This document shows, piece by piece, positions 1,421 to 49,192 of a stretch of 64,000 bases of DNA. Source of the DNA: a virus; IMG/VR virus record IMGVR_UViG_3300035698_022838, positions 32,001-96,000 of that record. One strand, given 5' to 3'. A model generated the notes under the pieces. It worked only from the letters and a program-made list of their open reading frames with translations. It ran no database searches and had not been told where the DNA came from. Each line of letters opens with the position of its first letter. Position 1 is the stretch's first letter. The translations under genes were made by a program, and so were the position numbers.

Positions 1421-1480
1421 TACTAATATTGATTAATAAATATTTATACTTATAGAGAAATGATCCGAAAAGATTTCATA

Positions 1481-23655: not shown

Positions 23656-25275
23656 TTAGCTTTTAGGTCCTATTGGGTCTGGATCAAATGGATCACTACT
23701 AGTTGACCCGCCAATTGGATCAATTGATCCGGGTATTACATAAACATAAGAAATCCAACCACATTTAAAATTACTATCTGGTCCGGTACCTCCGCCAGCA
23801 AATGTCCTATAGAAAGCTTCTGTTTTACCACTAAAAAATGTTAATTCGATATGTCTACATCCACCAGTAGCTCCAGTACCACCATCAGGAATACCAACAG
23901 TAATATCACTCCATGGGGGATATTGTTTCATTCTTATCCCACCAAAAGAATATTTATCACTATCCAAAAAGAAATTAAATGTTCTTTTCTTTGAACTTGA
24001 TACATCAACCCAAGAAAAATCATTACCTAGAGATAAATAAAATCTATCTGCATTACCATCAGATAAAGGAATTTTAGTATTTCCAATCTTTAAAGGGGTT
24101 ATTGTAACCTCATCACTAGATGGGACAGCTTCGACATAATTATTATTATAAGAACCTTTAGTAAATCTAGGTCCAATTACATAATCAACTAATTGTAAAT
24201 CTTTAACTATTAAACCGTTATCTGTGTCGCCAGTATTTCCAACAATAATTGGCCCATCATTTCTTACTTTAAAAATTGAATCCCCGCTAGCACCAATAGT
24301 ATTTAATAAAAATTTAGAACTATTTATATTATTAGTTTCTACAGATACACCATTACCCTTTGCTATTGTAAGTGTAATGATATTATCCCCTGTTGCAGAA
24401 GCAGTACAACCATCAGATACATTAACATCGAAGGAATTTGTACTTACATTAATATTATTTGATATTAGATTTAATTGTGAATTACTAACAAAACTCGCTG
24501 TTCCACCTTGCATAACAACATAAGTGCCAGTTTGGACATTCATATTACCATTTGAAATAAGAGAAGCAGTCCCACCCGTTGCTGATAATGTAATTTGATC
24601 CCCAGCAGATATAGTAAACTTATCACTACTAGTATATTTGATTGAATAATCGTTCGTCGAAGGAGAAGCCCAATATAAACCAGGTAAATTTGATTGTTGT
24701 TGAAAGGTCTTACCAAAAGCAATAAGAGGATTTTCTGAATCACTATTTGTCTCTATTAATAGCTTGGATAAATTTCGGTTTACATCTTCTATTCCAGCAC
24801 TTCTACTTAACAAAGCAAGACTATAATCTTGTGGTGTTCCTGGACTTCCTTTTATATGAATTGCATTATCTTCTGTTAATCCAGCAGGACCAGAGATTTC
24901 TTCTAGTATATCAAATATTGGAGTACTTAAAAGGCTATCAACTTCTTCCCATTCAAGTACACCATTATCCCATTCATATCTAAAAACTTTTTGATATCCA
25001 GTTGGTCCTAGATTAACCCATATATCGCCCTCATTAGAATCGGATGGTAATGGCTCAGTATAACTAAAATACCAATTAGAAGCTCTATCACCAGTAATCC
25101 CAAGGTTTCCGTCCCTACCAACCTGTCCCTTAATACCGGTTAAACCGGGTTCTCCAATCTCACCAGGTTTACCTATACCATTAAACAGTATTTGATCAAA
25201 GTTATAATTCGTTTTAAGAATTATTGCATCCTTGTTATCACCAGGTAACATATATTTTGTGTTAAAATTACTCAT
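23656..25275 (-). CDS. Tail fibre-like protein with collagen-like segment (start revised from 25371)
   Basis: ATG at 25275 (MSNFNTKYMLPGD) aligns with the N-terminus of the upstream paralog; Gly-X-Y run GKPGEIGEPGLTGIKGQVGRDG. Confidence 0.75.
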   Translation of the reverse strand: MSNFNTKYMLPGDNKDAIILKTNYNFDQILFNGIGKPGEIGEPGLTGIKGQVGRDGNLGITGDRASNWYFSYTEPLPSDSNEGDIWVNLGPTGYQKVFRYEWDNGVLEWEEVDSLLSTPIFDILEEISGPAGLTEDNAIHIKGSPGTPQDYSLALLSRSAGIEDVNRNLSKLLIETNSDSENPLIAFGKTFQQQSNLPGLYWASPSTNDYSIKYTSSDKFTISAGDQITLSATGGTASLISNGNMNVQTGTYVVMQGGTASFVSNSQLNLISNNINVSTNSFDVNVSDGCTASATGDNIITLTIAKGNGVSVETNNINSSKFLLNTIGASGDSIFKVRNDGPIIVGNTGDTDNGLIVKDLQLVDYVIGPRFTKGSYNNNYVEAVPSSDEVTITPLKIGNTKIPLSDGNADRFYLSLGNDFSWVDVSSSKKRTFNFFLDSDKYSFGGIRMKQYPPWSDITVGIPDGGTGATGGCRHIELTFFSGKTEAFYRTFAGGGTGPDSNFKCGWISYVYVIPGSIDPIGGSTSSDPFDPDPIGPKS

Positions 25276-25288
25276 ATAATTATTTGAT

Positions 25289-26815
25289 TTATGGTATGTA
25301 TAAATACCCAGAATCCCCATTACATGAATGGTAAAATACCTTGGATCTATCGGCTGCAACCCCGGCCACAAGTTTTATTATAGTAACATCTACAAACTTA
25401 ACTGGTTCTATAAAATGCACATAAGTGGTTGTTGAGCTCACTGGTAGTGGTGGACTTCCACTCGTATTAACACCCAGATCAGTAATTTTCTTAGTATCAG
25501 GAGCAAAAATTCTTATATTTAAAGATTGACCAACATCTAAATAATCGTCCCAAGTCCCTGCTACCGTAGATAACGGTATGCTAATTCCTCTTCTACCTGA
25601 TGCTGCGAAATCTGCGTATACTGTATTACCACTTCTCATTGCATTAGCACCAGTTACCCCAAATATCCACCAGTCTACATCTAGATCCGTTTCGCTATAT
25701 TTATTATATCCAGTATAGCTAGAATCCTTTATGCCATCAAGATCACTAAATGAATTAATCGTTCTAGCAATATTAATCCTTCCATCGTTTCTAATACCAA
25801 ATTTACTTGTACTACGTGATACAAAATTACCTAAATAATAAGAAGAACTGCTATTACTTGATACTACACGTAAGCCACCGCCATCCCCTGTATTAGTTAC
25901 AGTTAAACCAGGTAGAGATGTGCTTGCAACTATATTAATTGGCATGGATAAGGAAAATAGACTATTATTTACTTGGAATTTCTCTGAAATAAACGTCATA
26001 GTATTTGCACCGGAACTAAATGTCATACTACTGCCAGATGTAATTGACATATTACCATCACTCTGTGCTATAAACTTAGTGCTTGTATTAATATTTATTG
26101 CTCCACCTGTACTATTTAAAGTAAAATCGCCTCCAGTATTTATCGAAAAAGCATCTTGTGGTATGTTTAATAATAAACCATAGTTAGATGTACCGGTACC
26201 CATCCACTTAAAATGTGGATGTCTACCATAATCTTGAATTGTACCAATTCCTAATGCACTATCAGTTTTAGCAAATTCCAATAATGGATAATCGTTTGTC
26301 CCATTAGTAGATATTAATAATTTAGCATAAGTGGGATTAGCATTAGTTAATAATGGGGAATCACTTAAAACTAAAGTGTTTAAGGCTGGAAATGAGCTAT
26401 TGAAAACAATAGCATTTCTATTACTACTTGGACCCCATATATTATAAATGGTTTTAAATACCTCGGTAGCTTTCATATCGTGACCAGTTGATACCCAACC
26501 ACTAGCAGTATATTGAAAAATAGTATTATCACCAGCAACTGTTTGTACCCAATAATCACCATAATATATAGGATCACTACTACCACCAACAGGTTCATTA
26601 GGACTAACAAACCATCTAGTTCCACGTCTTCCTTGCTGTCCTTGATCACCTTTATCTCCCCCGCCACCAATAATCCCTCTTTTTCCTCTTAGCCCCTTTC
26701 TTCCTCTTGGTCCTCCTCCACTATATACTAATGAATCAAAGTTTTGATTCATTTTACTAGCGAGATTTTCCTGTGTATCTCCGGGATTTAATTTTATTAT
26801 ATTTAATTCAGACAT
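25289..26815 (-). CDS. Tail fibre-like protein with collagen-like segment
   Basis: GPRGRKGLRGKRG...GDKGDQGQQGRRGTRW; beta-repeat mid-section. Confidence 0.75.
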   Translation of the reverse strand: MSELNIIKLNPGDTQENLASKMNQNFDSLVYSGGGPRGRKGLRGKRGIIGGGGDKGDQGQQGRRGTRWFVSPNEPVGGSSDPIYYGDYWVQTVAGDNTIFQYTASGWVSTGHDMKATEVFKTIYNIWGPSSNRNAIVFNSSFPALNTLVLSDSPLLTNANPTYAKLLISTNGTNDYPLLEFAKTDSALGIGTIQDYGRHPHFKWMGTGTSNYGLLLNIPQDAFSINTGGDFTLNSTGGAININTSTKFIAQSDGNMSITSGSSMTFSSGANTMTFISEKFQVNNSLFSLSMPINIVASTSLPGLTVTNTGDGGGLRVVSSNSSSSYYLGNFVSRSTSKFGIRNDGRINIARTINSFSDLDGIKDSSYTGYNKYSETDLDVDWWIFGVTGANAMRSGNTVYADFAASGRRGISIPLSTVAGTWDDYLDVGQSLNIRIFAPDTKKITDLGVNTSGSPPLPVSSTTTYVHFIEPVKFVDVTIIKLVAGVAADRSKVFYHSCNGDSGYLYIP

Positions 26816-26856
26816 TGGTTTAATTTCTTTCTTTATATATTCTTATTTTATTCACC

Positions 26857-29805
26857 TTAGATTTTTTCAATTTTAAAAGTAAATGTTGTGGAATAATTTT
26901 GTCCCTCCTCTAATTTAACCTCAAAATTATACATTAAAGAATTAATTCTTATCAATTTATAATTTGGCTCTAGATAATAAGAATATCTTATTCTGTCTGG
27001 GTTAATTAAATCTCCTCTCAATAATATTTGGGTAGAAGTTAATGGTTCACCTGATTTTTTCACATAGAGATCAAAATCAATACCTTGGTATATAGGTGAA
27101 ATATTTCTATCTATGTATGATTTAATATCATCATTTATATCATTAGGATTATCAACACCATATTCACTAATTATATTGTCAATAAATACTTTACTTACAC
27201 CATTATTTAATAGATATCTTCTTAAAATACGATCAAGTCTTATAGATCCATATAACATATTAGTTCTATCATCCTTTTGCCAAAATACTTCTACGTCAGG
27301 GTATACATCTTGATCAAAAACAGGTAAATCTACAGTACTGTAAACGGTACCAAGTTGGCCTATTCCAGTATTTGAAGTTGATGGTTTAATTTTCTGTACT
27401 ATAGGGATTGCAGATGTAGCTAAACTATTTATATTATTAATTGCAGTTGAGCCTTTCGTTCTGGAAATTTCTAATGTTGTAAACGTATAAGCTGTTATAG
27501 AATACGGGGTTTGCATAATTTTAGATCCTAAAAATGACTTATTTTCCTTCATACTTCTTGTACCAGCAACAGGAGTTCCTATAATCGCAGAAGTATACAT
27601 ATTATAATAGCCAGGATCCCATGATGAATAAAATACAGAAAAATCCTTATTTGCTATTGGAGTTTCGCCTATTAAAGGATATACTGGACCACTAGGGATA
27701 TTTTCAGATGCTTTAAGAATATCATTACCCAATGAAACTTTAGTATAACCGATATTTTTTATAAGACCGAACATTTCTCTTTCAGGAGCAAATGTACAAT
27801 TTCTATATTTAAGATCCGCTGTATTATAGCCTAAAATAGTATCAATTTTATCATTTTTAAATTTAAGTACTTTTCTAAATAGAGGTTCATATCCTCCTGG
27901 ATATCTTAAAATATCAGCTGCAAAGATAGTACCACCGCTTACAATATCATATCCAGTTGGTTGATTTTGACCAAGTGTTTGTGGACCAGAATAATCTGCT
28001 AATGGTCTTAATCCACTGCTTCTACGCATTGCAGTTGGTTGTACCATACTAATTTGAAATCTATCAGTTTCAGAAATTGTAGATGCTGTTGTTTCATCCC
28101 ATGAATATGTGGTGTAACTAATATATGGACTTTCCGTATTAACTCTATTAGAAATATCAGCAACAGAGATTCTTCTCATTATAAAGTCCATATAATTTTT
28201 ACCACCATTTATTTGGAATACTGGATTATTTCTATATATACTACTAGAACCTAATGGTACATTAGTCACAACTGCCGTACCAAATGTAAAAGAAAATGGG
28301 ATAGTAAAGTCATAATTAGAAACATCAAGCGGACCAAACAAAACAAGATTTTCAGATCTTCCAATAGGCCAAGGATACTGTGAATCTATGGCTGGAACAG
28401 AAAAACTACCAGGACCAGTTAGGCCAAGTGTTGAACTACCATCGACAGGATATAATAAATTTATTTCATCTCTTAAATCTGTATCATAATCGGGATTTGT
28501 TTCGATATAAACAAATCCTGGATTTGTTGTTGCTGTTACTGAACTATTAGAAGCAACAGATAAATTTAAAGCTGCACTTAATTTTATATCATCAATCTCG
28601 TATAATACAGATCCGGTTGGGCCAGATGCACCAGTTAAACCTATTAATGAATCTTTTTTCTTATCACTAAGAGAATATAGTAATGTATAATCTAGATATG
28701 GTGTTCCTCCCGTTCCGCCAGTATAGCCTAAAGGTAAAGCTCTATAATCCTTTATTACTACTTTACAAACAAAAAGTATGCATTTTTGTTCTATATTTTC
28801 AATAAATTCATATGTAACTGGTGCTTGGATTATACTATTATCTTCTGGTAAAACTCTTAATATTGCTGCAAATTTATAATCATCAAACCCCCTGTAGTTT
28901 GGTATGTATTTATCAGTACCATTATTTGTATTTTCAACAGTACTCTTTCTTTTTAGTGTAAGTTTAATCCCTCTAAAAACAGTATCATAAAACCCAGTTG
29001 ATTTATTATAAACCAAAGGTGTAAATAACTCCTTTGTTAAATTAGTAGAAATATTATATGGTGCATCATAATCCAATGGATCAACAGTAAAAAACGAGGA
29101 GAAATATAAAGAATCCCCGGAAGCACCACTAACAATTTTAGAAAGATCTATTTCACCAGGTAGATATCCTTTTTGTTCATCAATACTATTTATTGGATAT
29201 TCTCTAGGAATTCCCTCTAATAACATCCATTCATGTGTTAAATACTGGGGATCTGGCGTTTCTCTTTGAAAACTTGGTGAAAAGTTAGTTGGACTAAAAG
29301 CAGGGGATACATTAAGCCTATATGGGTTTCCTCTAGCATCCGTCCCATTAAAAAATCCCCATTTATTGATATACGGTACTATTCTGGATCTATTAGCTCT
29401 TTCAGAAGTGTAATTTTCTTCTAGATATAAATACTCATTATCCAATTTACCATATTCAAATAATAGTTCCTTATTATCTGATGGTAATATACTATTCTCA
29501 TTAATTGATTGTATACCATAAAAACCAGAGAACCCATCTAAATTCTCTTCTGCTAATTTTACGTGTTCATATTCAGTTGCTTCATCAACCCAGCCAAGTC
29601 GCATGAATATTGCAGGTACAACAATTACATTAACCCCAGTCGACACTAATCCAGCATCAGAAAAATAACTAACATTAGTTCCTATGAAAACTTTACCTGC
29701 AGAAAGAATACGCTCGCTACCAAGTCCTATATCGACTCTAGCTAATCCATCCTTTATTAGATATTTTACATTTTCTACTATTTGTCCTGGTTGATCTGGA
29801 ATCAA
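26857..29805 (-). CDS. C-terminal part of a giant virion/baseplate protein (probably continuous with 29802-32393 through a -1 frameshift)
   Basis: TTG start only; its frame opens exactly at the T5 run at 29858-29862. Confidence 0.7.
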   Translation of the reverse strand: MIPDQPGQIVENVKYLIKDGLARVDIGLGSERILSAGKVFIGTNVSYFSDAGLVSTGVNVIVVPAIFMRLGWVDEATEYEHVKLAEENLDGFSGFYGIQSINENSILPSDNKELLFEYGKLDNEYLYLEENYTSERANRSRIVPYINKWGFFNGTDARGNPYRLNVSPAFSPTNFSPSFQRETPDPQYLTHEWMLLEGIPREYPINSIDEQKGYLPGEIDLSKIVSGASGDSLYFSSFFTVDPLDYDAPYNISTNLTKELFTPLVYNKSTGFYDTVFRGIKLTLKRKSTVENTNNGTDKYIPNYRGFDDYKFAAILRVLPEDNSIIQAPVTYEFIENIEQKCILFVCKVVIKDYRALPLGYTGGTGGTPYLDYTLLYSLSDKKKDSLIGLTGASGPTGSVLYEIDDIKLSAALNLSVASNSSVTATTNPGFVYIETNPDYDTDLRDEINLLYPVDGSSTLGLTGPGSFSVPAIDSQYPWPIGRSENLVLFGPLDVSNYDFTIPFSFTFGTAVVTNVPLGSSSIYRNNPVFQINGGKNYMDFIMRRISVADISNRVNTESPYISYTTYSWDETTASTISETDRFQISMVQPTAMRRSSGLRPLADYSGPQTLGQNQPTGYDIVSGGTIFAADILRYPGGYEPLFRKVLKFKNDKIDTILGYNTADLKYRNCTFAPEREMFGLIKNIGYTKVSLGNDILKASENIPSGPVYPLIGETPIANKDFSVFYSSWDPGYYNMYTSAIIGTPVAGTRSMKENKSFLGSKIMQTPYSITAYTFTTLEISRTKGSTAINNINSLATSAIPIVQKIKPSTSNTGIGQLGTVYSTVDLPVFDQDVYPDVEVFWQKDDRTNMLYGSIRLDRILRRYLLNNGVSKVFIDNIISEYGVDNPNDINDDIKSYIDRNISPIYQGIDFDLYVKKSGEPLTSTQILLRGDLINPDRIRYSYYLEPNYKLIRINSLMYNFEVKLEEGQNYSTTFTFKIEKI

Positions 29806-32393
29806 TTCAAAATATCTATGTGTTTCTGGGGTTGGTGTAATACCATATACAGAAGATAAAAATCAAAATCAAAATCTTTAATATCAAAAAATGAGAAAAC
29901 CCCACTATATAATGTGGCCATTTCAAATACATTGAATTTAGAATCACTACCAAGATCTATAATTGCTTTCTGGTCTACTAAATTAGCAACTAAAAGTTCA
30001 TCATATCCAGTAAAAGATGTTACTTCTCCTGTCTTATTATTTATATTATTATCATAGACTGGAGAATCAACATATCTAGTTATTGATCCTATCATAGCCA
30101 TACCTCCAGTTACTCCTCTTCCGCTTTCAACTTCTATCCAATCACCAGCAGTTATCTTATCAATCTCAGATATGTTAAATGCAACTCTACATAAACCATA
30201 GTCAGTTCCACCAGTAAAATTAACAGGTTGACTAACCAAAGATGCATCAATACCTCCGATTTCTAATATACCTGATGTTGAAAATGGAATATATATAGAC
30301 CAATAAGCTGGTTCTTCTGTAGGGATTTGACCCATGCTACTTCTTGCAATACATGTATAATAAGCACTATTATAATAAACTATATTATTAGTTTCATAAG
30401 TACTTTCCGTTATCCACTGACCAGCATAATTTGGACCAAAAGTATCATAATCGTCAAATACACCAATACTAAATGAATTATTTGGTTTATATCCACTTAA
30501 TTTGGATCTTATGATCGAGGTGTCATTATTAGGAACTGAATCCCAAACAACAGTACTTATATCTGATATACATTCACTGAATGAATTTGCAACATCACTA
30601 GTTTCACCTTGTATACTATTAAAATAGTGTTCATTATCTATGTTATATGAACTACCTGCTCGCCAACCAACTAATGTTCCACCAAATTCCCCGCTTTTAA
30701 CAAGGTCATATCTACCAGTAGAACTATTTATTGTGCCGTTTGGCCAAAATATCTTAAGTACTATTTTATTTGCATAATTAGTAGTATTAAGAAATTTAAT
30801 CCCTATATTTGCATATCCGTTTGTTTTCGGTAATAAACCTTTATATGAACCTATAATATCTCCATGTCCTGTAAAACTTAATAAATCTACAGATTTATTT
30901 GGAATTACTAAATCACCGGTATCTAATGCTATATTACCAGTTATACCAAATCCAGTACTAGCATATGGGCCATATGTACTATGTGATGGTGTCCAGGTAT
31001 CCCATGATTCAGTTTCAGATAAATAATTCTCTGTTCTCTTTAATGAATAAAAATTATCATTTTTATCAGTTATATAATATAATTTCTGTGCATCATTTAC
31101 ATTAACATCATAAGAACCTGGAATCCAACCAGAAGCACCTTCATAAAATAATCTTACCCCTCCAGTGCTACTTTGATATGACGAAACATTATTATTATAA
31201 TAACCAATATTGTTTCTAGTTGGTTTAGGTTCATTTAGATTGCCTTCCTTATTTTTAAATTCATGGAAATAATTACCATTTAATTTAAACTCTCCAAGAT
31301 CATTTCTAGATACATAACATCCATAATATCTATTGATTGTATATAAATCAGAATCCTTATCATCAAAAAGAAACTCAAGATTAAGTAAATTTGGACAAAT
31401 TATACCATTGCGTTCAAATCCTTCAGTTATTTTTTCTTCAAAATCTGATTGTATAGATGCATTTTCGCTAACAAGATATTCAGATAGAAGTTCACCCTTT
31501 TTAGTAAAAACCCCATCTTTTACACTTATACCATTATAATACGTATATGTATTTTGTTGAAATGAGAAATCGAGTGGGGTTTTAGAATAACCTTCTGCAT
31601 TTATAACAGATCTAATATATTTACCTATTGTCGTTTCAGATCTTAGATCAAAGGTCGATATAACCATCGAATTAGGTAATATTTTACCATTGAAAAGATC
31701 AGGTACATTATCAACATTAGACTTATACTTTAATTCATTCATTTCAACAACTTTACCAGTACCGGAAACTATTGTATATGTTGAATATAACGAATTACCT
31801 TCAAATATTGCATCATTAGTATATTGTATATTTTCACCAAGCTCATTTTTACTATAAAGAATAATAAAATCTTCTATAGAATCTGGATCTTCTATAACCT
31901 TATATTCAACATCACCAGTAATAATTGTCTGGTTTGTTATGTATGGGTAGCTCAACGGACCCGGAACCTTAAATATAACAAAGAATTCTGGAAGTTCATC
32001 TCGAAGCCATAATGGTTGAAAATACCTAAAATTTTCATCATAATTTCTATCTATTAAGGTAGAAGCTCCAGCACCATAGAAAAAATCATATTGATATTCA
32101 AAATTATTTACAGACTGCTTGCTCCCGTCGGTAAACTCTCCAGCCTGGAATATAATATCGTTTGAAATCGAGCCATCAAGAAAAAAACTAAAAAGGTCAC
32201 TCGCATAGCTATCTTCGCCAGTAACTCGAAATTTCTTATATTTTTGATCACTCAGTGTTGGGTTAGCATTCATCGAATTTAACCATACTCCACCACTCGA
32301 ATCGAGCGATATTTTTACGTTACCGGTTAATTTTGGGTTTGTTCTTAATAATCCGAATGATGTATTATAATCAAATAGTCTTGGTGTTGCCAT
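29802..32393 (-). CDS. N-terminal part of a giant virion/baseplate protein
   Basis: 863 aa with structural composition; the last ~17 residues are off-composition. Confidence 0.7.
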   Translation of the reverse strand: MATPRLFDYNTSFGLLRTNPKLTGNVKISLDSSGGVWLNSMNANPTLSDQKYKKFRVTGEDSYASDLFSFFLDGSISNDIIFQAGEFTDGSKQSVNNFEYQYDFFYGAGASTLIDRNYDENFRYFQPLWLRDELPEFFVIFKVPGPLSYPYITNQTIITGDVEYKVIEDPDSIEDFIILYSKNELGENIQYTNDAIFEGNSLYSTYTIVSGTGKVVEMNELKYKSNVDNVPDLFNGKILPNSMVISTFDLRSETTIGKYIRSVINAEGYSKTPLDFSFQQNTYTYYNGISVKDGVFTKKGELLSEYLVSENASIQSDFEEKITEGFERNGIICPNLLNLEFLFDDKDSDLYTINRYYGCYVSRNDLGEFKLNGNYFHEFKNKEGNLNEPKPTRNNIGYYNNNVSSYQSSTGGVRLFYEGASGWIPGSYDVNVNDAQKLYYITDKNDNFYSLKRTENYLSETESWDTWTPSHSTYGPYASTGFGITGNIALDTGDLVIPNKSVDLLSFTGHGDIIGSYKGLLPKTNGYANIGIKFLNTTNYANKIVLKIFWPNGTINSSTGRYDLVKSGEFGGTLVGWRAGSSYNIDNEHYFNSIQGETSDVANSFSECISDISTVVWDSVPNNDTSIIRSKLSGYKPNNSFSIGVFDDYDTFGPNYAGQWITESTYETNNIVYYNSAYYTCIARSSMGQIPTEEPAYWSIYIPFSTSGILEIGGIDASLVSQPVNFTGGTDYGLCRVAFNISEIDKITAGDWIEVESGRGVTGGMAMIGSITRYVDSPVYDNNINNKTGEVTSFTGYDELLVANLVDQKAIIDLGSDSKFNVFEMATLYSGVFSFFDIKDFDFDFYLLYMVLHQPQKHIDILN

Positions 32394-32403
32394 TTTTTAA
32401 TGT

Positions 32404-35964: not shown

Positions 35965-35972
35965 TTTATTTT

Positions 35973-38183: not shown

Positions 38184-38203
38184 TTAATTTATATTTTTTT
38201 AAA

Positions 38204-39082: not shown

Positions 39083-39107
39083 TTAATGTATTTATTTTAG
39101 TTTGGAA

Positions 39108-39115
39108 TATATATC
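39108..39115 (-). promoter_or_regulatory. GATATATA putative late promoter
   Basis: Restarts the structural operon after phoH. Confidence 0.65.
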
Positions 39116-39162
39116 ACACTACAGCAAAGACAAAAAATTAGATTGAAATTAAATTATAATTT

Positions 39163-39858: not shown

Positions 39859-42800
39859 TTCCCAGCAAAAGTATCATCAGGATTATCATCAATCACTATT
39901 CCTGAGCTAAAAGTTATTTTATTTTCATCTATTATAACTTTTTGTTGAGCCAAAAGATCTCTTTGTAAATCTGCCATTTTGGTATTTCTAGTATTGGCAA
40001 GCTCTATGTACCCATAGTCTATTGAATTAACATATTCTGGGTTAGGGTCTCCAGCAGCAGGGATTGATTGATTCACTACTGTTATGAATGCGGGTTTAGA
40101 TGTTTCATATACGTTTCCTTCTGAATCTTCTATAGAATTTATAATTGAATAATATCCATTCTTAGTAAATGTGTATATGAAATATGGTATATTTTTAACA
40201 TCCAATAATATTTCATTATTTGAAGCGTCAGATAAAACCCATCTATTACTATTTTTCCCATATATCTCTGAAGCATAATTACTCATGAAAATAGTAGATA
40301 ACATAGGTACATATAAATTAGAATTTGAATTATGTACGTCAGCCCACACCCAGGCGCCCGATCCAACCTGAGACCTAATATCTCCCATATCCTTTCCTGT
40401 TAACGTTTTGTAGCTTTCCATAATACCTATGAAATTTCCACTAGCTCCTGGGTATGGTAATCCAGTAGGTCCAGTAACTCCACTATTAGATCCAGCAATA
40501 AAAATATCTAAATCATCAGATACTGATAATTTTAGAGTAGCTTGATCTCCAGTAATTCCAGTTGTAGGGAACGTTGAAAAACTATCAATATAAGTTCCAC
40601 TAACATTTCTTTTAATTATAACATGTGCACTACCACTAATACCTGGTGTTTCAGGATAATGAATTGCATTATAATAATCGGTAGTATTTGTAGTATCAGT
40701 TATATCAGATATGGTTGCATTATACACGTCCACGTACGTATCGGGTAAAACCTCGTATGTTGACAATAAGGTATAATATCCTCCTGGGTTTATTGAAATA
40801 GTAGCTAAATTCAATGCACCAGTCAATCCACTAGCTACACTATCATCATTTGGTGTTGGTACTATTGTAGATTCACCAGTGAATAAAACATCAGCATAAT
40901 ATTGATTATCTGATTTATATCCTCTGATTGTATTATACCAAGTATTATATTCAGCTCCAGTAAGTCCAATATTAGCAAGAAATGCCCCGGTAATACCACT
41001 ATTAGAACTATCATTCAACACGAAATATGCATTAGAATAACCTGGATTTGGATGACTTAATATGAAATCACCATTAGTAACATCATAAGTAGAAGTACCA
41101 GTAAGTAAATATGTAAGTCCCTCTGATAATGAATTGACATCATCTAAAGAAGAAGTATTAACGCCAGTCATACCAATACTAAAGGCTTTTCTTATATTCA
41201 ACGAAGCATTAAGATCTATAACCATCCCGCTTCTATTATATGACGTAAGATCATCTAATGGTGTTGAGAAAACAAAAGCATTAACATTATTGAAATCACT
41301 GTTATTTTCATATTCACCGGTTAGTGTGCTTATACCACCTCTAAAATTACTAGTCAGTCTAACTGTATTCTTAGCAACAGAAAGATCACATGCTCCAAAT
41401 TCATAAGGCCCTGAAACACCACTTATTGTATTATTTGGATCATATCCAGATGAAGCACCAGGGAAATGCCTAAAGTTCTTTAAACAGAATTTAGATGCGA
41501 ATTCATCATTTTCAAAATCAATTCCACCATAGCTTATTTCATTACCTAGATCAAAATCTATTTCGGCAAGAAAGAGCGAAACAGTATCTGTTACTACAGT
41601 CATATCAGGTAAATATGCACCACCAGTAGCACTGGTTGGACCATTTTGAATCCATGGATAATTATAGCTTGCAGTTAAACCAGGAGTCGCAATATTAGAG
41701 AATCCAATAGGTCCACCAATAGGACCAGTTACACCAGTAACAGTCATATTACCAGCACCAGGATATTCTGAGCCATAAAGGAATTTACCTGCTTCTATAT
41801 ACCCAGAATATGATCCTAAAATAAAGAGAGAGGAGTCATCTAATGAGGACGCAATCTTTAATGCTTTCGTATCGTATCCGCGAAGTGGTATAGCTCCTCT
41901 AACTTGACCCCCATCATTAAAGAACGCAATAAAACCTATATTATTAAGACCAACGCTAGCAGTCGGGTTTATATTTTCAATTGTATAATCAGTTATTAAG
42001 CTATTTTGTTCACCGAGTGTTATTGTTGATGTTGTTGCATAACCGGTTACAACATTCATATCTCTATATCTGGCAGTAGATGTTATAGTAAAACTACTAG
42101 TATTATTTAACCAAGTATAATCTGGTATTAATTTATTTAATTCACTTTCTGCATATGGTATAATTTCACCATTATTCCAATATTCTTGGTTACCTGCGCT
42201 TTTATCAATTAGATCTTTAAAGTTAACATCTAAAAACATATTTCTTGGATCTAATCCAGGATGCTGTAATGCAATTTTTTTAACGTCATAATCAAGCCAC
42301 GTAGGGGTAGTCCAAGTATATTTACCAGCTTTTGGTATCTTTGCTTCGTCTCCTGTTGAGCCACTTGTAGTTGGTTCATAATACACAAAATTCCAACCAG
42401 TAGCACCTTCATAATTTGATGTACCATAAACATGTGGTATAGTATAATCAAATAAACTAATCACATTTCCGTTAATAATCCATAGATCGTCTTCATAGAC
42501 AGTCAAATCTCCTCTTTGAGACTTATCATTGGATAATAGTATATCAATGACACGATCGTACGGTAATGGCGGCGTAGAGCTGTTATTATACAGAGTAAAT
42601 GTATCACCGTTGAAATGATATAAACCGTTTGTTGTGGTTGGACTATTTAAAGGATTACCTCTTCTAAAGAAAACATGGCCATTTTTTCTTGCTTGTACCT
42701 TTGTTATGCCGTTACCATCCCCTGCAGTCCAATTATAGAACTTTTCATTATCCCAGTATACTAATCCTGCTTGTGTTCCTGCCCAGTATTTACCGCATTC

Positions 42801-43511
42801 ATCAAATGAAAGTGAATAAACTATATCTGAACCAATCCCAGAATTATTTGAATTCAATTTTTTAAGAGTTGGTATTAGTTGGGTACCATCTATCATAGTC
42901 TGAAGATCCAAATGTCCGTCTGGGATTATTTGTAATCCATCATTAGTTGCCATATAGTAATTAAACCCATCAGGCTCACATCTAGCAGTTATTTCATAGA
43001 TATGTGGCCACGTATATCCTGGAGCTACTTCATTCCACAGTTCAGATTTCTTGTCATATCTCCATAGATAACCACCAGTTGCACTAGATAGACCAGTTGC
43101 ACCAGTACCTAATGCTCCATTTAATGGACTAATAAAAGCAAGTATGTCACTGCAATATGGACTAGCATATATTGTAGGTACTTCCCAATTTGGTGATTCA
43201 TCTATAAGATTACCAAATTCGCTAAGTAACCAAGAAGATCCTGTTGCAGCATTAATATTTTCAGCTGAAAAAACAAGAGTTTGATTCAATGTTTCAGAAA
43301 CTGCACAACCAAGCCATTTAGTATCGTCACTATCAATACTTATAGATCTGGTATCTAAATAATATGGTAAATTATCAGGAACAGTAGAATTTGACGCCCC
43401 ATAATAAGTGCTATCAGCTCCATCATATTTAATAAGATCTCTTCCAGCACACCAAATGTTACCAAAAGAATCCAATTTTGCTTGATTTATATAAAATACA
43501 GTACTTGACAT
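39855..43511 (-). CDS. Large beta-propeller-containing tail/receptor-binding protein
   Basis: Reg_prop-like blades (D..G..W.GT..GL; F..YN..S...LP.D.V..I), many G-x-T-G motifs, PKD-like C-terminus. Confidence 0.65.
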   Translation of the reverse strand: MSSTVFYINQAKLDSFGNIWCAGRDLIKYDGADSTYYGASNSTVPDNLPYYLDTRSISIDSDDTKWLGCAVSETLNQTLVFSAENINAATGSSWLLSEFGNLIDESPNWEVPTIYASPYCSDILAFISPLNGALGTGATGLSSATGGYLWRYDKKSELWNEVAPGYTWPHIYEITARCEPDGFNYYMATNDGLQIIPDGHLDLQTMIDGTQLIPTLKKLNSNNSGIGSDIVYSLSFDECGKYWAGTQAGLVYWDNEKFYNWTAGDGNGITKVQARKNGHVFFRRGNPLNSPTTTNGLYHFNGDTFTLYNNSSTPPLPYDRVIDILLSNDKSQRGDLTVYEDDLWIINGNVISLFDYTIPHVYGTSNYEGATGWNFVYYEPTTSGSTGDEAKIPKAGKYTWTTPTWLDYDVKKIALQHPGLDPRNMFLDVNFKDLIDKSAGNQEYWNNGEIIPYAESELNKLIPDYTWLNNTSSFTITSTARYRDMNVVTGYATTSTITLGEQNSLITDYTIENINPTASVGLNNIGFIAFFNDGGQVRGAIPLRGYDTKALKIASSLDDSSLFILGSYSGYIEAGKFLYGSEYPGAGNMTVTGVTGPIGGPIGFSNIATPGLTASYNYPWIQNGPTSATGGAYLPDMTVVTDTVSLFLAEIDFDLGNEISYGGIDFENDEFASKFCLKNFRHFPGASSGYDPNNTISGVSGPYEFGACDLSVAKNTVRLTSNFRGGISTLTGEYENNSDFNNVNAFVFSTPLDDLTSYNRSGMVIDLNASLNIRKAFSIGMTGVNTSSLDDVNSLSEGLTYLLTGTSTYDVTNGDFILSHPNPGYSNAYFVLNDSSNSGITGAFLANIGLTGAEYNTWYNTIRGYKSDNQYYADVLFTGESTIVPTPNDDSVASGLTGALNLATISINPGGYYTLLSTYEVLPDTYVDVYNATISDITDTTNTTDYYNAIHYPETPGISGSAHVIIKRNVSGTYIDSFSTFPTTGITGDQATLKLSVSDDLDIFIAGSNSGVTGPTGLPYPGASGNFIGIMESYKTLTGKDMGDIRSQVGSGAWVWADVHNSNSNLYVPMLSTIFMSNYASEIYGKNSNRWVLSDASNNEILLDVKNIPYFIYTFTKNGYYSIINSIEDSEGNVYETSKPAFITVVNQSIPAAGDPNPEYVNSIDYGYIELANTRNTKMADLQRDLLAQQKVIIDENKITFSSGIVIDDNPDDTFAGN

Positions 43512-43523
43512 TTCTTTATTTGT

Positions 43524-45140
43524 TTATTTATATATGGATCCCCCATAAGTAATTTTTGTTCCATACCCAGCATAATATCCGGAAGTAGATAGATCTAAAG
43601 TTTGTGCTACACCAGTACATGAATTATAACTTCCTATGGTAGCTGCAAATGGTACTATCTCTATAGGCCCACCCAAATCATTAAGTACATTAGAATTATC
43701 TGTAAGCTCTATACTAGTTACCTTTGAATTTTTTATCATTATAGCTATACCATAATAACTACCTGTACCCCCACGGTGTGCTAAATATAAATCAGATGCA
43801 ACTGCTTCTACATAACCGGTTCCACCAGTAACACCAATAGCTATAGCTGTATTTATCATCTCGGCAATTCCAGTTGCTCCTGCTGGATTATCTGCAGTAT
43901 TTTGCATTTTATAAAACGTACCATTTGACGAATTACCAGTTCCTCCATTTGCATCAAAGTCTATACTTGGATTGTCTACACCTGAAGATTGTGTAACCTC
44001 TAACGTCAAAGTATATTTATTTCCTGGAAACCCTGCATCAGTAAAATATTGAGGTGATACTATAAGTGGATTCGAAGTAGTATTGTCATCTGGGTTTTCT
44101 TGATATTCACCGCCACGAGCATACGCTTGTGCACTATGAACTAATGGGTAGGGTGAACTTATAACACTTGTTAAAAGTGCATCAGACCAATTAAAGCTAT
44201 CTGCTAAAATTGTAATATTACCAGTATCCATATAGAATATATTATTCTTCAATCCTGGGGTAAGATAATCTCCTGAATCTATTGCAGTTTCACCAGGACT
44301 ATATAATATATTATTTATACCAATAACACCAGAGATTTCTTCTATCCCGTCCTCAAACGTACTATCACCTGCTAACCCAGTAGCTACTAAAGTACAATCC
44401 TCGTTTGTCGAATGGAAATTACTTATTACCTGTGCTGCTCCGCCACTAGCTCCAACACCAATTTCGAATATTTTATTATTTAATGGTAAACTAGCATCAG
44501 AACCTTTAAATGCGGATAGAGTAACAGAGGAAGCTTGTATATAAGTATTAGCAATACCATCGGTATTTATATAAACAGTTTCAGCTACTCCAATTTTACT
44601 CATGGTAAAATTATCAGATGTTGTGTCGTGAATAAGACCATTTTCCGCAGTAAGTTGGACAGTAACTTGTCTACTATAACCAGGAGGATCTGCAATATCT
44701 GCTCCTTGCACATCAACCCAATCAGACAATTCAAAATTGGTAACATTTTGTGAGGTAGATCCGCTACCTCCAATGTCCCAACTCCACGTATCAGGACTAG
44801 CGAAATCACCGGTTGAGGCATCGGTAAAATTTATAGTTTCAGACATTATTATAGCAGTATCGCTTTTGGTAAAACTAGCAGTTATAGTTGATGGTAAAAC
44901 GTTTATTAGATTAACATAATATGCGTAATCGATAACATTATTAAAATCTGTTATACTTAAGTATGCATTGTATAAACCAGGTGAAGTATATTGGATATTT
45001 GCAGTTGGACCATATGTTTGTATTATTCCTGAGCCTGTCGTAAATACCCAATGATATACTATATATGGGGTAACCCCACCATAGGTTGTATCAGTAAAAT
45101 CTACTGATTGTGATGCGTATATTGTAATTTGATTTGCCAT
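43524..45140 (-). CDS. PKD-domain virion protein
   Basis: V.FTDT...Y.W.F...Y.SPG.Y...L and ASF....INFTDASTG...TWSWD.G. Confidence 0.75.
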   Translation of the reverse strand: MANQITIYASQSVDFTDTTYGGVTPYIVYHWVFTTGSGIIQTYGPTANIQYTSPGLYNAYLSITDFNNVIDYAYYVNLINVLPSTITASFTKSDTAIIMSETINFTDASTGDFASPDTWSWDIGGSGSTSQNVTNFELSDWVDVQGADIADPPGYSRQVTVQLTAENGLIHDTTSDNFTMSKIGVAETVYINTDGIANTYIQASSVTLSAFKGSDASLPLNNKIFEIGVGASGGAAQVISNFHSTNEDCTLVATGLAGDSTFEDGIEEISGVIGINNILYSPGETAIDSGDYLTPGLKNNIFYMDTGNITILADSFNWSDALLTSVISSPYPLVHSAQAYARGGEYQENPDDNTTSNPLIVSPQYFTDAGFPGNKYTLTLEVTQSSGVDNPSIDFDANGGTGNSSNGTFYKMQNTADNPAGATGIAEMINTAIAIGVTGGTGYVEAVASDLYLAHRGGTGSYYGIAIMIKNSKVTSIELTDNSNVLNDLGGPIEIVPFAATIGSYNSCTGVAQTLDLSTSGYYAGYGTKITYGGSIYK

Positions 45141-45154
45141 TTTTATATATTTAA

Positions 45155-48100
45155 TTAAGGTCCAGTAGCATAAGTAAAACTAACCACTAACGGTGATGCT
45201 GCTCCTGGCATAGTTGCAGGGGGTGCTAAAACCCCTCCTGTACCAGAGAAAGAATTAAAAGTTATTTCAACAGGTTCAGATGTTGTTAATGAGGTTGTTG
45301 CTATAGTAGGTCTTACACGATAGTAAAAATTAGTAATGTTTTCATCTGTTGAATTATTTAGTTGATTTGCAACATCACCCAACGTTAGATACCCTGATGG
45401 ACCATTTATAAATGTTACACCAACAGGAAATGGATATTTTTCTTTTCCTGGACTAACCTTTATATGATCGCCAACCTTCGTAGTATGGATCTCATATCCA
45501 CCTAACCATCCATTATTGTATGAAAAATCATCCCAAGTATGCGCATAAGCTTCATCCCATGTAGACTCATTAAACATATTCCAATTTAGATTTTTTGTAC
45601 CAAAATATCTTATATTACTATTTCCGTCTATATCATCATACGGATCCCAAGGAATATAAGCAGTTCCCCCAGTAATTCCACCAGACAATATAGAATCTAC
45701 TGACACTAAAGTAAGTGAACCGGTTAATGATACAGTTAATACGTCATTGTTACCAATTCCACCTGTTCCGGTATCACTAGCAACATTAATTGTTGCTGGA
45801 GAAACCTCTGGGTTAAATGATTGTGCAAAATAGTCCGGATACAGAGTAACACTATTAATTTCTTGGACAATCGCGTTTACTGTTGCTTGTATATTAGAAC
45901 CTGACGCAGTAGATCCAACATTTCTATTATTTATAGAAACTGTTATTCCTCCACCTCCTGTTACTTTCTGATCAGGTAATACTACAGGATCTAAATAATA
46001 TGCAGTACCTCCAGCAATTGAAGCTGCGCCAGACGTAGTTCCTACCCCATATTCAGGAGACAGTATATATGGAATAGTAAATGAATATCCAGTAGCTCCG
46101 GTGGGTATAGATATATTCCAGGGTTTATTAAGATCGTCAATTGAACCAGTTAAGAATATTTGACTACCTTCTACAAATGAGTGAGGTTCAGTAGTAAAGA
46201 AAAGGCAATAACCATATTGAGAACCTGATGCCCATAAAGAATATGCCTTGGCTATAGATAATATATTCTGAGATATTATAAAATCTCCTGATGCACCAAT
46301 AGGCTCATTATATTTACTAAGTAATAGCTCTTGTCCATTTAATGCATTATTACCATATACAGCAAAATCTAATATAGCCTTTGGTATTTCTTTCGTAATT
46401 TCATTATATGTTTTGCCTTCTGCCGGGGATATCCAAGTAGAATTATAATCATCCCAATCTTTTACTGTTTGGTCCCAAGTATAATTTTCATTTTCCTTAT
46501 ATCTAGTCCATGCATCAATAAGTATTTCCTTTGGTGCTACTTTTATTGTGCTTTTTTTAATTTTAATATTCTTGAAATTAAACGAGTCATATAAATAACA
46601 AGTAACATCATATTCACCAATATATGGTAAAAAATGTGCTAATTTATAAAAATCCTTAGTATACCCACGATATGAAAAATAATATCCAGAACCTACTTGA
46701 TTCTGCGATTTTTCTATGACCCACTCGATCTCATTATATGCTGAAAGATCTATAGAATCCCATGTTAAAGCTTTTGCTGTACTTGTAGTATCAGGAAGCT
46801 CCATAGAATTCCAATCCATTCCCATTTCATCCCATGTCCAATTATCAATTTCGAGTTCAAGTACTACCGGCATTCCAATCGGAGGTTTATACTCCGAACC
46901 GTCTATATTAGTATATATTATTGGATCATTAACATTATCACCTAGATTTTCTAATAAACTATTTTCCTTTAAATAATAATAGTTTGAAATCGCATCAAGC
47001 ATGCTTAGATTCTCTGCTGCTGTGTATTTTTGGCCATTGGTAATTGGGGGTATAATATTACCAAGATCTGAAACGCTGCTATTTACTATATTCATAGCAC
47101 CATTCAGCTTAGTTGTATTCACATCAGAATAGTAATAAATGGTTGCTTGTTCTTGTGGGTTTACGTCAATAGTAACTGTAGCTCCACCTGTTGCACCACT
47201 GTTTGTAACACCTAATGGTAAATTATCACCAGTAAGTCCACTATTGGTACTTAAAACAAAATTATAAGTATCACTATTGATTACAAAGTTGTACCTCTTT
47301 CCTTTGCTTAGATTTAAAGTTTGATTATCCCCGGTTACACCAGCGAATCTAAATACATCACCTGATGGACCTGCTACAGAAACCTCTATGGTTTCTTCAT
47401 TATAATAATTCATTGGTGCCTGTATAGCATCAACACTTTCTCTAGTACCAAAAGCTCTTAAATCCTCAAGAAAACCAAAATCTGGATTCACTTTGAATTC
47501 TAGATCATTTCCAGATTCAATATCAACTCTTTTTAAGGTATCTGTCCATTCTTTAGTATTATAAACATTGAAATAAACACCTTCTCCAGTAATATCAACT
47601 ATTCTAGCATTTAATGGAAGATAACTTTTTTTCAGTCTTTCCTTTAATGCGAATAACTTTACTAATACCTCTTCTTGGGTAAAAGCAAAAGCTTCTGGTG
47701 TTACTGGGTAACCATATGGATCAGTAGCTGTTGATTCAGTATTAATGTCATAATATAAACCAAATAATGCAGTCTTTTTGTATGTTCTGCTAGGAACTAA
47801 GGTATTCTCTGATGAAACATCCAGTACATATTCACCATCTGAATTTGGGCCGTATGTTTGTTCAAGTCTATATTTACCACTATTTTCATTATCTAATACA
47901 TCACTGATTAGTGAAACTTGGTTTGGTATTTTTGTTGATTTATATTTATCTAAAAATATCTTATTTTCTTCAACAGGACGTACGTCTGCTTTAGCATATC
48001 TAAGGTTTAGCCAATATTCTTTTATACGCAAATCTTGGTACCCAAAGAATTTCAAAGCACCAATTAAGCCTTTATAACTACCAATATAAGGAAATATTTC

Positions 48101-49192
48101 CTCACCAGCAACCATAAGTTCCTTTCTCTTTTCGTTGATCTCTAGGTAATCAGGAAGAGGTTCGGCTGGATCATGATCTCTTAATATAGGGGAATCAGTA
48201 CCAAAAAATGCTCGACCCATATTTTGAGTAAGTACATCAAGCCTTTTATCCTCACCTATTACTTGTCCATAGAATAGAATCTCTGCGACTTTTTCGGTGG
48301 TTCCAGACGTAATATCCTCAATTATGAGTTTCCTCTCATATACTTCAGCACCAATATCTGGTGCATTTATAGCAACATTAATACCTAAAGATCTAGAAGG
48401 TGTTCCAGCTTCTGGTGTTACTATATAGCCAGTTGAAAATGTATCTGATGAATTAAGTATAACAGGAATTGTTATATTTTGGTAATTAGTGATTGATGGG
48501 TTTCCATCAATTTCTGGATCTTCCTCATCTATTTTATATGTAAATATGATGTTTGTTACATCAGTAGAACCATAACTATCATTTTCCCACCTAGTTCTCC
48601 ATAATGGAGTATTACTCGAAGCAGTAGCTCCAGTATGTGGTAATCCAACGAAATGTTCACTAGTAACAGAATCTTCAAACTCTTGTATTATGAATATCTG
48701 TTCGTTTTCATATAAACCTGCAGAAACCTCGTCAAAGAAAACAGACCCACTAAAATACCCACCAGGCAAATCTTCACTTATAGTTTCAATATATGCACTA
48801 TTACCATCAGAAATATTAGTAACTCCGGTAATGCTAGAAAATTCAATGCTTACAAGAGCTCCAACCTTATTTATGCCTGAAACAATTCCTTCCAAAACAT
48901 TAGAAGGATGGAATGTAATTTTTAATGTAATTTTTCCACCCTGTGATACTGCATCACTTACCGCAGTTATCCATGGACTTATATCATATCCATTCACATC
49001 ATTTACATTCAGGAATAAAAAATTACTCGAGATTGAATGCAAAGATAGATTACCAGATGTTGAAATCCCACCAATAGGTGCAGATTTATATCTGAAGTTA
49101 TATGTCAAAGGACCAGCAGCAGTAGCTCCAGTATACCCAAAGTTTAAAGGATTTCCCTGCTTATCAAAAAATTTAAGGTGTTTATTAGCCAT
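45155..49192 (-). CDS. Large baseplate wedge protein (gp7/P2-I-like segment)
   Basis: YIGSYKGL..ALKFFGY..L.IKEYW; lies downstream of gp25-gp6. Confidence 0.6.
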   Translation of the reverse strand: MANKHLKFFDKQGNPLNFGYTGATAAGPLTYNFRYKSAPIGGISTSGNLSLHSISSNFLFLNVNDVNGYDISPWITAVSDAVSQGGKITLKITFHPSNVLEGIVSGINKVGALVSIEFSSITGVTNISDGNSAYIETISEDLPGGYFSGSVFFDEVSAGLYENEQIFIIQEFEDSVTSEHFVGLPHTGATASSNTPLWRTRWENDSYGSTDVTNIIFTYKIDEEDPEIDGNPSITNYQNITIPVILNSSDTFSTGYIVTPEAGTPSRSLGINVAINAPDIGAEVYERKLIIEDITSGTTEKVAEILFYGQVIGEDKRLDVLTQNMGRAFFGTDSPILRDHDPAEPLPDYLEINEKRKELMVAGEEIFPYIGSYKGLIGALKFFGYQDLRIKEYWLNLRYAKADVRPVEENKIFLDKYKSTKIPNQVSLISDVLDNENSGKYRLEQTYGPNSDGEYVLDVSSENTLVPSRTYKKTALFGLYYDINTESTATDPYGYPVTPEAFAFTQEEVLVKLFALKERLKKSYLPLNARIVDITGEGVYFNVYNTKEWTDTLKRVDIESGNDLEFKVNPDFGFLEDLRAFGTRESVDAIQAPMNYYNEETIEVSVAGPSGDVFRFAGVTGDNQTLNLSKGKRYNFVINSDTYNFVLSTNSGLTGDNLPLGVTNSGATGGATVTIDVNPQEQATIYYYSDVNTTKLNGAMNIVNSSVSDLGNIIPPITNGQKYTAAENLSMLDAISNYYYLKENSLLENLGDNVNDPIIYTNIDGSEYKPPIGMPVVLELEIDNWTWDEMGMDWNSMELPDTTSTAKALTWDSIDLSAYNEIEWVIEKSQNQVGSGYYFSYRGYTKDFYKLAHFLPYIGEYDVTCYLYDSFNFKNIKIKKSTIKVAPKEILIDAWTRYKENENYTWDQTVKDWDDYNSTWISPAEGKTYNEITKEIPKAILDFAVYGNNALNGQELLLSKYNEPIGASGDFIISQNILSIAKAYSLWASGSQYGYCLFFTTEPHSFVEGSQIFLTGSIDDLNKPWNISIPTGATGYSFTIPYILSPEYGVGTTSGAASIAGGTAYYLDPVVLPDQKVTGGGGITVSINNRNVGSTASGSNIQATVNAIVQEINSVTLYPDYFAQSFNPEVSPATINVASDTGTGGIGNNDVLTVSLTGSLTLVSVDSILSGGITGGTAYIPWDPYDDIDGNSNIRYFGTKNLNWNMFNESTWDEAYAHTWDDFSYNNGWLGGYEIHTTKVGDHIKVSPGKEKYPFPVGVTFINGPSGYLTLGDVANQLNNSTDENITNFYYRVRPTIATTSLTTSEPVEITFNSFSGTGGVLAPPATMPGAASPLVVSFTYATGP

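Follow-up and report, generated by a model that had tools for sequence, protein, structure and literature searches.

Why should the same four residues recur in phage tail proteins that otherwise show hardly any resemblance to each other? The question is raised by a stretch of 64,000 nucleotides, here called the window, from an uncultured phage (bases 32001–96000 of the 162,880-bp viral contig IMGVR_UViG_3300035698_022838). In it, ten large minus-strand open reading frames (ORFs) at 23656–49192, downstream of a gene for a gp6-like baseplate wedge protein, encode apparent tail proteins unusually rich in the tetrapeptide G-x-T-G. A first-pass annotation of this DNA had noticed a dispersed G-x-[ST]-G motif in these proteins, and had suggested that it is a recognition sequon for glycosylation of the virion, the window also encoding (at 143–1420) a GT2 glycosyltransferase with tetratricopeptide repeats (TPRs). 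We find that the motif is present in great excess, that the excess arises at the level of the proteins and is a property of a whole clade of very large phages, and that the enzyme is, to judge from its sequence, a homologue of SgtA of C. difficile. By analogy with SgtA, G-x-T-G may serve as a minimal site for O-glycosylation, first used in collagen-like fibres and since spread among unrelated tail proteins, a proposal that we regard as evenly poised between right and wrong.

A Thr-specific motif excess in the tail proteins

There are 43 occurrences of G-x-T-G across the ten tail ORFs, about seven times as many as expected from composition (6.4), and 15 of G-x-S-G (6.9 expected). The total for G-x-x-G is 104, against 67.8 expected and, because all other residues at position 3 are at or below expectation, the whole of this surplus comes from Thr and, to a lesser extent, Ser. 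The excess stands at z = 15.4 against shuffles of whole proteins, and still at z = 13.7 when shuffling is confined to blocks of 20 residues, so that locally Gly/Thr-rich segments are not the explanation, and local composition could be rejected as the source of the pattern. The order of the residues matters: the permutations GTxG, GGxT, TxGG and GxxTG are all at expectation. Relaxed forms are enriched, but more weakly (GxTA, 15 versus 3.5; SxTG, 19 versus 6.7). Since Ser can stand at position 1 and Ala in position 4, the requirement seems to be for small side chains, rather than for a backbone geometry available only to Gly. At position 2, the preferred residues are A, V, I, L, P and G.

The earlier hand counts of 14, 9 and 8 sites (in 39855–43511, 45155–49192 and 26857–29805, respectively) were reproduced exactly, and the further sites claimed for 23656–25371, 43524–45140, 35973–38183 and 38204–39082 were also found (8, 7, 3 and 3). 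The rough expectation that had been offered, about two sites per 1200 residues, agrees with the value of about 2.0 that shuffling gives for the 1218-residue protein, and counting against composition-shuffled controls confirmed the excess in the tail ORFs. Two refinements are needed. The motif had been written as G-x-[ST]-G, but only the Thr form stands, as Ser adds little either here or in the relatives considered below; the signal is essentially Thr-specific. The sites had also been described as something other than collagen runs. This is true of the 41 (of 58) that are isolated, in the sense of having no in-register Gly at -3 or +6, but collagen-like runs of 9–10 triplets are present in two of the ORFs (23656–25371 and 25289–26815). 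These are the longest runs in the ten ORFs, none of which matched any Pfam family, so they do not qualify as collagen of the PF01391 type; true collagen ORFs are present elsewhere in the genome. ORFs outside the structural gene blocks are close to expectation (G-x-T-G, 6 versus 3.8; G-x-S-G, 8 versus 4.9).

Could the excess have arisen in the DNA, as a recombination or slippage motif, through codon bias, or from locally G/T-rich sequence? In favour of such an artefact, the Thr codon ACT is used at 70% of motif Thr residues, compared with 45% of other Thr residues, but ACT is also found at 58% of Thr residues that precede Gly outside the motif, so the Gly that comes next accounts for most of the bias (which was rejected as a sign of selection for the same reason). 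In the ten tail ORFs plus an ORF at 116221–119502, a search of the DNA for GGN-NNN-ACN-GGN gave 50 matches in the coding frame, none in either of the other sense frames and three in antisense; Gly codon usage at the sites is that of the background, and no 12-mer is common to two sites. The restriction to the coding frame and the unremarkable Gly codons imply selection on the peptide. With such diverse codons at the sites, and with the block shuffles already described, an origin at the DNA level or in composition can be rejected as extremely improbable. Two other candidates were also discarded: a repeated domain common to the carrier proteins, since only one pair of them is related in BLASTP, and an Asp-box-like hairpin (S-x-D-x-G-x-T-W), since the sites lack Asp at position -2 and have Gly in place of Trp at position 4.

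Distribution of the motif among related phages

Homologues of the 1218-residue protein (39855–43511) are numerous, at 35–60% identity. With this protein, a tblastn search of the phage collection and a single-protein scan of viral contigs gave no matches; an alignment-based scan was successful. G-x-T-G is present 8–15 times in most of the 25 homologues that were aligned, against about one expected, with a single outlier that has three. Over the 26 sequences there are 33 distinct site positions, about 11 being occupied in each protein: three or four occur in almost every sequence, and a dozen are limited to one or two. Several of the conserved Thr residues are islands within poorly conserved flanks. 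In other words, sites turn over while their density is held.

The gp6-like wedge protein, which anchors the tail module, also served as the query for finding relatives. All 73 related loci retrieved from IMG/VR, each holding four to nine large tail ORFs, show an excess of G-x-T-G (3.8–9.1-fold), G-x-S-G being at about 1-fold and G-x-x-G with any other third residue at 0.4–0.85-fold. In one complete relative of 434 kb (G010), there are 284 G-x-T-G genome-wide against 53 expected (G-x-S-G, 59 versus 56.6). The excess in G010 is limited to about 16 of its 536 ORFs, the remainder having 36 against 29.2. The enriched ORFs are four that encode collagen-like proteins (with runs of 15–37 triplets) and a dozen large ones, of which several belong to the tail-gene region surrounding the gp6 homologue. 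In the immediate context (positions -4 to +6) of 358 non-redundant sites, K, E, D and Q are depleted and A, P, S, T and G enriched, with a faint triplet rhythm (T favoured at -1 and +5, and G at -3 and +6).

Outside this clade the dispersed excess is gone: LR756500, LR756501, LR745206, MaF61 and pT24 have 0–2 times the expected number, and in LR756502 and Tunturi_5 the motif is confined to long collagen-like runs. Nor do the tail genes beside gp6 show an excess in a sister clade (gp6 45–48% identical).

An SgtA-like glycosyltransferase conserved in the clade

The assignment of the product of 143–1420 as a GT2 enzyme with TPRs proved correct. The protein matches PF00535 (41.4 bits, against a cut-off of 23.3), and its match to TPR_17 falls under the cut-off (20.3 versus 24.4 bits). 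An AlphaFold (AF2) model, with a predicted local distance difference test score (pLDDT) of 85, has an alpha/beta domain at residues 36–200 and an all-helical repeat at 212–424, and its nearest matches in Foldseek are SunS and ThuS (E = 1e-16 over about 390 residues, compared with about 1e-6 for other GT2 enzymes). The helical region also matches consensus TPR proteins and the TPR domain of OGT; as modelled, the C-terminal domain is a TPR domain. The best sequence matches in PDB are to GmaR, a flagellin O-linked N-acetylglucosamine (O-GlcNAc) transferase, followed by ThuS and SunS.

SgtA is a 358-residue C. difficile protein comprising a GT-A domain and four TPRs, and its gene lies just upstream of bclA3, which encodes a collagen-like exosporium protein (PMC7157674). 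In vitro it adds beta-O-GlcNAc to Thr residues of the peptides TGATGLIGPTGATGA and AGLIGPTGATGV, as well as to single-site peptides with one GATG or one GPTG; all the mapped acceptor Thr residues are within G-x-T-G (G-A-T-G, G-P-T-G and G-I-T-G), the natural substrates are modified on Thr, and single sites in short, unstructured peptides suffice (PMC7157674). We identified SgtA as the GT2-plus-TPR ORF directly upstream of bclA3, in the C. difficile locus found via a back-translated peptide from the same source. The two enzymes have the same layout, with an N-terminal GT-A/GT2 domain bearing a DxD motif and a C-terminal TPR region, and have the motifs VDTGSTD, DADD and HE in common. BLASTP aligns them over 253 residues (E = 6e-14; phage residues 34–270 with SgtA 5–231), and hhalign over 263 columns (97.7% probability, E = 1.8e-12; 34–333 with 5–293). 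By these alignments, the phage enzyme is a collinear homologue of SgtA, the similarity extending from the glycosyltransferase domain into the helical region and thus beyond the generic GT2 core. The DADD motif (D121-A-D-D124) and VDTGS-D do not vary among 15 orthologues, and DADD aligns with LDADD of SgtA, an Mn2+-dependent enzyme, so that the DxD motif is in place. Orthologues at 58–70% identity are encoded by all seven of the complete relatives.

There are also clear differences. SgtA is a bacterial protein, encoded immediately upstream of its single collagen-like substrate with long (G-x-T)n runs, whereas the phage enzyme, 25% identical to it, has no adjoining substrate gene (about 32 kb separate it from the nearest collagen-like ORF), and its candidate sites are mostly isolated, in beta-rich tail proteins that are not collagens. 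Distant homologues of the enzyme are encoded closer to such proteins in two phages outside the clade: in Tunturi_5 the distance to the gene for a 1469-residue (G-x-T)n protein is 3.7 kb, and in LR756502 that to the gene for a 1937-residue one is about 6 kb. Tunturi_5 (PP885688.1) is a cultured jumbo phage of Acidobacteria; in its region 28905–38126, the 1469-residue protein has 66 G-x-T-G, the GT2-TPR homologue is gp35 and a nucleotidyltransferase is gp36, so that a candidate pairing of enzyme and collagen-like protein is available in culture.

Location of the sites in a modelled tail protein

Residues 20–1218 of the 39855–43511 product were modelled with AlphaFold from 72 sequences. The model (mean pLDDT 78.5) is beta-rich, with N-terminal propellers of the Reg_prop type. 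In this protein, 12 of the 14 sites lie in coil directly beside strands, which fits the suggestion that they would occupy exposed loops. Six of the 14, including two of the most conserved, are in segments modelled with low or borderline confidence, which are probably flexible, and one TG-rich stretch (model residues 570–624) is high-confidence coil. A Foldseek search with the 1199-residue model gave only generic beta-propeller matches, uninformative on the motif.

The propeller, which makes up the N-terminal third of the protein, is similar to the periplasmic domains with which hybrid two-component systems of Bacteroides sense glycans, profile and Foldseek searches both having matched sensors of this kind (PDB 4a2l and 3ott). 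The resemblance hints at a candidate receptor-binding domain and at a Bacteroidota-like host.

A possible role as a glycosylation sequon

How might a tetrapeptide come to be scattered through one module of a virion in this way? In the scheme that we propose, G-[A/V/P/G/L/I]-T-G would be the acceptor of the SgtA-like enzyme that the clade has conserved, a predicted cytoplasmic, metal-dependent (DxD) GT-A enzyme with a TPR arm that would hold its protein substrates. The enzyme would be active and would use the motif, its ancestral substrates being the collagen-like (G-x-T)n fibres that these phages also encode. Point mutations might then have created single G-x-T-G units in the loops of baseplate-distal and fibre proteins, at least eight of them and unrelated to one another, so that many Thr residues of the outer tail would already carry an O-glycan when it leaves the cell. 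If the enzyme behaves as SgtA does, the sugar transferred could be an N-acetylhexosamine from a host UDP-sugar, and the coat might provide protection from proteases or host defences, solubility, or some help in adsorption. A sequon of this kind would account jointly for the unrelated carriers within one virion module, the restriction to Thr and the dependence on residue order, as well as for the movement of sites at held density, the small and uncharged neighbouring residues and the retention of an SgtA-type enzyme.

The suggestion that the motif is the sequon of the GT2-TPR enzyme is therefore strengthened by the homology to SgtA, by the clade-wide excess at the protein level, by the turnover of sites and by their position, mostly in loops. 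It is weakened above all by the sister clade, and also by the location of the enzyme gene among replication genes and by several other points, which we bring together here. Sister-clade phages carry a 34%-identical GT2-TPR enzyme with almost no excess of the motif (18 G-x-T-G versus 10.1 in one fragment of 87 kb), so the presence of the enzyme family does not in itself predict the motif. The co-occurrence that had been suggested thus holds in one direction: the enzyme is encoded in every complete motif-bearing genome, and no motif-bearing genome lacking the enzyme turned up among the complete relatives, but the converse fails in the sister clade. The neighbours of the enzyme gene are genes for adenylate kinase and DNA polymerase, and it lies 22 kb from the tail cluster. 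SgtA takes Ser in vitro (PMC7157674), yet G-x-S-G is barely enriched here. Three of the ten tail ORFs (25289–26815, 32404–35964 and 38204–39082) lack enrichment, and any Gly-rich tetrapeptide would be expected in loops, regardless of its function. Nor is there help from the control region of the enzyme gene. A T4-type TATAAATA box (1441–1448, minus strand) is present 20 nt upstream of the start codon, just after a GAAAT-N18-TATAAG arrangement (1449–1480), but the exact octamer is kept in only one of 13 relatives examined, and for that reason the presumed T4-type late promoter was dropped as evidence.

Competing explanations

The motif might instead be purely structural, as a turn of the polyproline II or collagen-like type, or a loop element needed for folding or trimer packing, that is never modified, the GT2-TPR enzyme acting on the collagen-like fibres or on something else. 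The position of most sites directly beside beta-strands would suit this well, as would the confidently modelled coil of residues 570–624, the near-invariance of four of the sites, and the triplet flavour of the context, which is that of collagen or polyglycine II segments; Ser would be a poor substitute for the beta-branched Thr, and retention of the enzyme without the motif in the sister clade would need no special explanation. It is harder to see why a structural element should be enriched, as the same tetrapeptide, in at least eight proteins without detectable homology, and yet be missing from sister-clade and outgroup tail proteins; why its sites should turn over at held density; why position 1 should accept Ser and position 4 Ala, while scrambled versions are not enriched; or why several conserved sites should lie in variable segments of low model confidence. 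On balance we think a purely structural role unlikely, but serious enough to be kept firmly in mind. Could the motif mark some other process, such as a different modification of Thr (e.g. phosphorylation), or be a site for an assembly chaperone or a protease? Any factor that recognises peptides could make use of a short linear motif conserved in flexible loops, but no candidate factor was identified, and the SgtA type, which the clade encodes, is the only family known for exactly G-x-T-G, so that we consider this improbable.

A further possible reader of the motif came to light outside the window. The first-pass annotation was right about the GT2-TPR enzyme but missed a second apparent protein O-glycosyltransferase, encoded at 124805–125998 in window coordinates. 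By sequence, this is a member of the BAHT (TibC/Aah) family: it scores 268.7 bits against the NCBIfam model TIGR04414 (‘autotransporter strand-loop-strand O-heptosyltransferase’, with an equivalog cut-off of 200) and matches TibC (PDB 4rap) with E = 5e-51. A GT4 gene overlaps it. If the heptosyltransferase read the motif and the GT4 enzyme extended the glycan, the presence of a TibC-like gene in six of the seven complete relatives would be explained, and so would the position of the motif, since TibC-type enzymes hyperglycosylate loops between the short strands of beta-rich surface proteins (PMC4358343). However, TibC modifies Ser and not Thr in its substrate TibA (PMC4358343), whereas the motif is Thr-specific, and the one complete relative that lacks a TibC-like gene, G010, retains the Thr motif, both genome-wide (see above) and in its tail locus (L069), where G-x-T-G is at 4.0 times expectation. 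These two facts make the heptosyltransferase an unlikely reader of the Thr motif; it also has a more obvious substrate, described below, and we rate its involvement as quite improbable. Even taken jointly, the rivals other than the structural one seem to us to have only a small chance of being correct.

A TibC-type enzyme and a Ser-rich fibre

The TibC-type and GT4 genes lie 2.6 kb from a gene for a 379-residue collagen-like fibre made up of GSS, GTS and GIA triplets. The TibC-type enzyme probably serves this Ser-rich fibre, as an enzyme–substrate pair separate from that proposed for the Thr motif; G010 has neither the TibC-like enzyme nor any excess of G-x-S-G, which also suggests a pairing of this kind. 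In some relatives, TibC-like sequence is fused into longer ORFs, of about 966 residues (G006, G007 and G011) or 776–785 residues (G003, G004, G005, G008, G009 and G015); only the C-terminal lobe matches TibC in the 776–785-residue forms. On the strength of these matches, the longer ORFs may represent new heptosyltransferase domain fusions.

The composite picture would be of a clade of 250–430 kb phages with baseplate and fibres coated in glycan by way of an escaped G-x-T-G sequon, and with an orthogonal pair consisting of a TibC-type enzyme and a Ser-rich fibre. We hold it more tentatively, its chances in our judgement falling somewhat short of even.

The tail module and its setting

The features discussed are listed in Table 1. 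The gp6-like wedge is most similar to proteins of huge uncultured phages, Lak phages, and Flavobacterium and Tenacibaculum phages. PHROG matches to the tail ORFs are weak and confined to a few of them (tail fibre or unknown families), and in BLASTP the tail ORFs are mutually unrelated apart from the single pair 23656–25371 and 25289–26815. These two ORFs overlap by 83 nt (25289–25371), and the upstream TTG start of the downstream gene (23656–25371) has probably been set too early. A gene for a PhoH-like ATPase lies on the opposite strand amid the minus-strand cluster.

Although the contig itself is a fragment (59% complete by CheckV), relatives in IMG/VR reach 250–434 kb, with terminal repeats in two of them, and because of this the label ‘jumbo phage’ that had been applied to it is a fair description. 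Collagen-like ORFs are present at both ends of the contig, in each case in a region with fibre-like genes.

Table 1. Features of the window and the surrounding contig (window coordinates unless prefixed; sites are occurrences of G-x-[ST]-G, with expected numbers in brackets)
Feature	Position (strand)	Length (residues)	Sites (expected)	Remarks
GT2 + TPR glycosyltransferase	143..1420 (-)	425		SgtA/SunS-like; candidate protein O-glycosyltransferase, from sequence
Tail-fibre-like protein	23656..25371 (-)	571	8 (1.3)	Shuffle p<0.004; 4 sites isolated; N-terminal collagen-like run of 9 triplets; weak match to PHROG 3904, tail fiber
Paralogue of 23656..25371	25289..26815 (-)	508	2 (1.4)	No enrichment; BLASTP E 9e-22
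Large tail protein	26857..29805 (-)	982	8 (0.9)	Includes GLTGASGPTG and GYTGGTG
Large tail protein	29802..32393 (-)	863	3 (1.0)	p about 0.08; sites isolated
Large tail protein	32404..35964 (-)	1186	1 (1.1)	Exception to the excess; PHROG 29329, E 3e-120
Tail protein	35973..38183 (-)	736	3 (0.45)	p about 0.013
Gly/Ser/Thr-rich protein	38204..39082 (-)	292	3 (1.8)	Not over its own composition
PhoH-like ATPase	39163..39858 (+)			Pfam E 3e-60
Tail protein with N-terminal Reg_prop-type beta-propeller(s)	39855..43511 (-)	1218	14 (2.0)	11 sites isolated
Tail protein	43524..45140 (-)	538	7 (1.3)	
Baseplate-distal protein	45155..49192 (-)	1345	9 (1.7)	All sites isolated; no sequence relative in PDB
gp6-like baseplate wedge	49727..51457 (-)		0 (0.5)	PHROG 219, E 5.5e-32
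TibC/Aah-type O-heptosyltransferase	L001:6805-7998 (-)			124805-125998, outside the window
GT4 glycosyltransferase	L001:7989-9029 (-)			Overlaps the TibC-type gene; the pair spans 124805-127029
Collagen-like ORF, start of contig	L002:135-512 (+)			GAT/GPT runs
Collagen-like ORF, end of contig	L001:11602-12741 (-)			GSS/GTS runs

Comparison with known systems and wider significance

The components of the proposed system have precedents in SgtA–BclA3, the glycocin transferases, the BAHT enzymes and the glycosylation of mycobacteriophage virions. SunS and ThuS (PDB 7msn, 7msp and 7msk) and GmaR of Listeria resemble the phage enzyme in combining a GT2 domain with a helical or TPR domain, and in acting on peptides or proteins and not on lipids or polysaccharides. 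They differ in what they modify: SunS and ThuS are the S-glycosyltransferases of glycocins, placing sugar on a Cys residue of a helical bacteriocin precursor, while GmaR modifies flagellin and doubles as an anti-repressor. We know of no evidence that any of the three reads G-x-T-G. The BAHT enzymes have a true member in this genome and in most of its relatives, and differ in the respects already discussed.

To our knowledge, defined O-glycosylation sequons are rare in bacteria, and among tailed phages glycosylation of their own particles has been reported for mycobacteriophages only; in Che8 and its relatives, virion glycosylation was reportedly described by Freeman et al. in 2023 (cited in PMC11256854). 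According to PMC11256854, phages are not typically glycosylated, but Che8 and its relatives use glycosyltransferases of their own to O-glycosylate the virion, which thereby gains a glycan shield. The targets there are the major capsid proteins of small actinophages, and a dispersed four-residue sequon in baseplate or fibre proteins goes unmentioned in that note (PMC11256854).

What would be new, if the proposal is right, is a minimal O-glycosylation sequon, derived from collagen-like proteins, that has spread through many non-collagen tail proteins of a phage clade. Its central prediction can be addressed without culturing the phage, with one enzyme and a few peptides, and a four-residue tag with a matching soluble enzyme would be of use in glyco-engineering. 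For the phages themselves, it would mean that an abundant, uncultured clade of giant phages coats the host-contacting end of the tail with sugar at predictable sites, which would matter for adsorption and for resistance to proteases and host defences, as well as for the way in which their tail proteins should be modelled and expressed.

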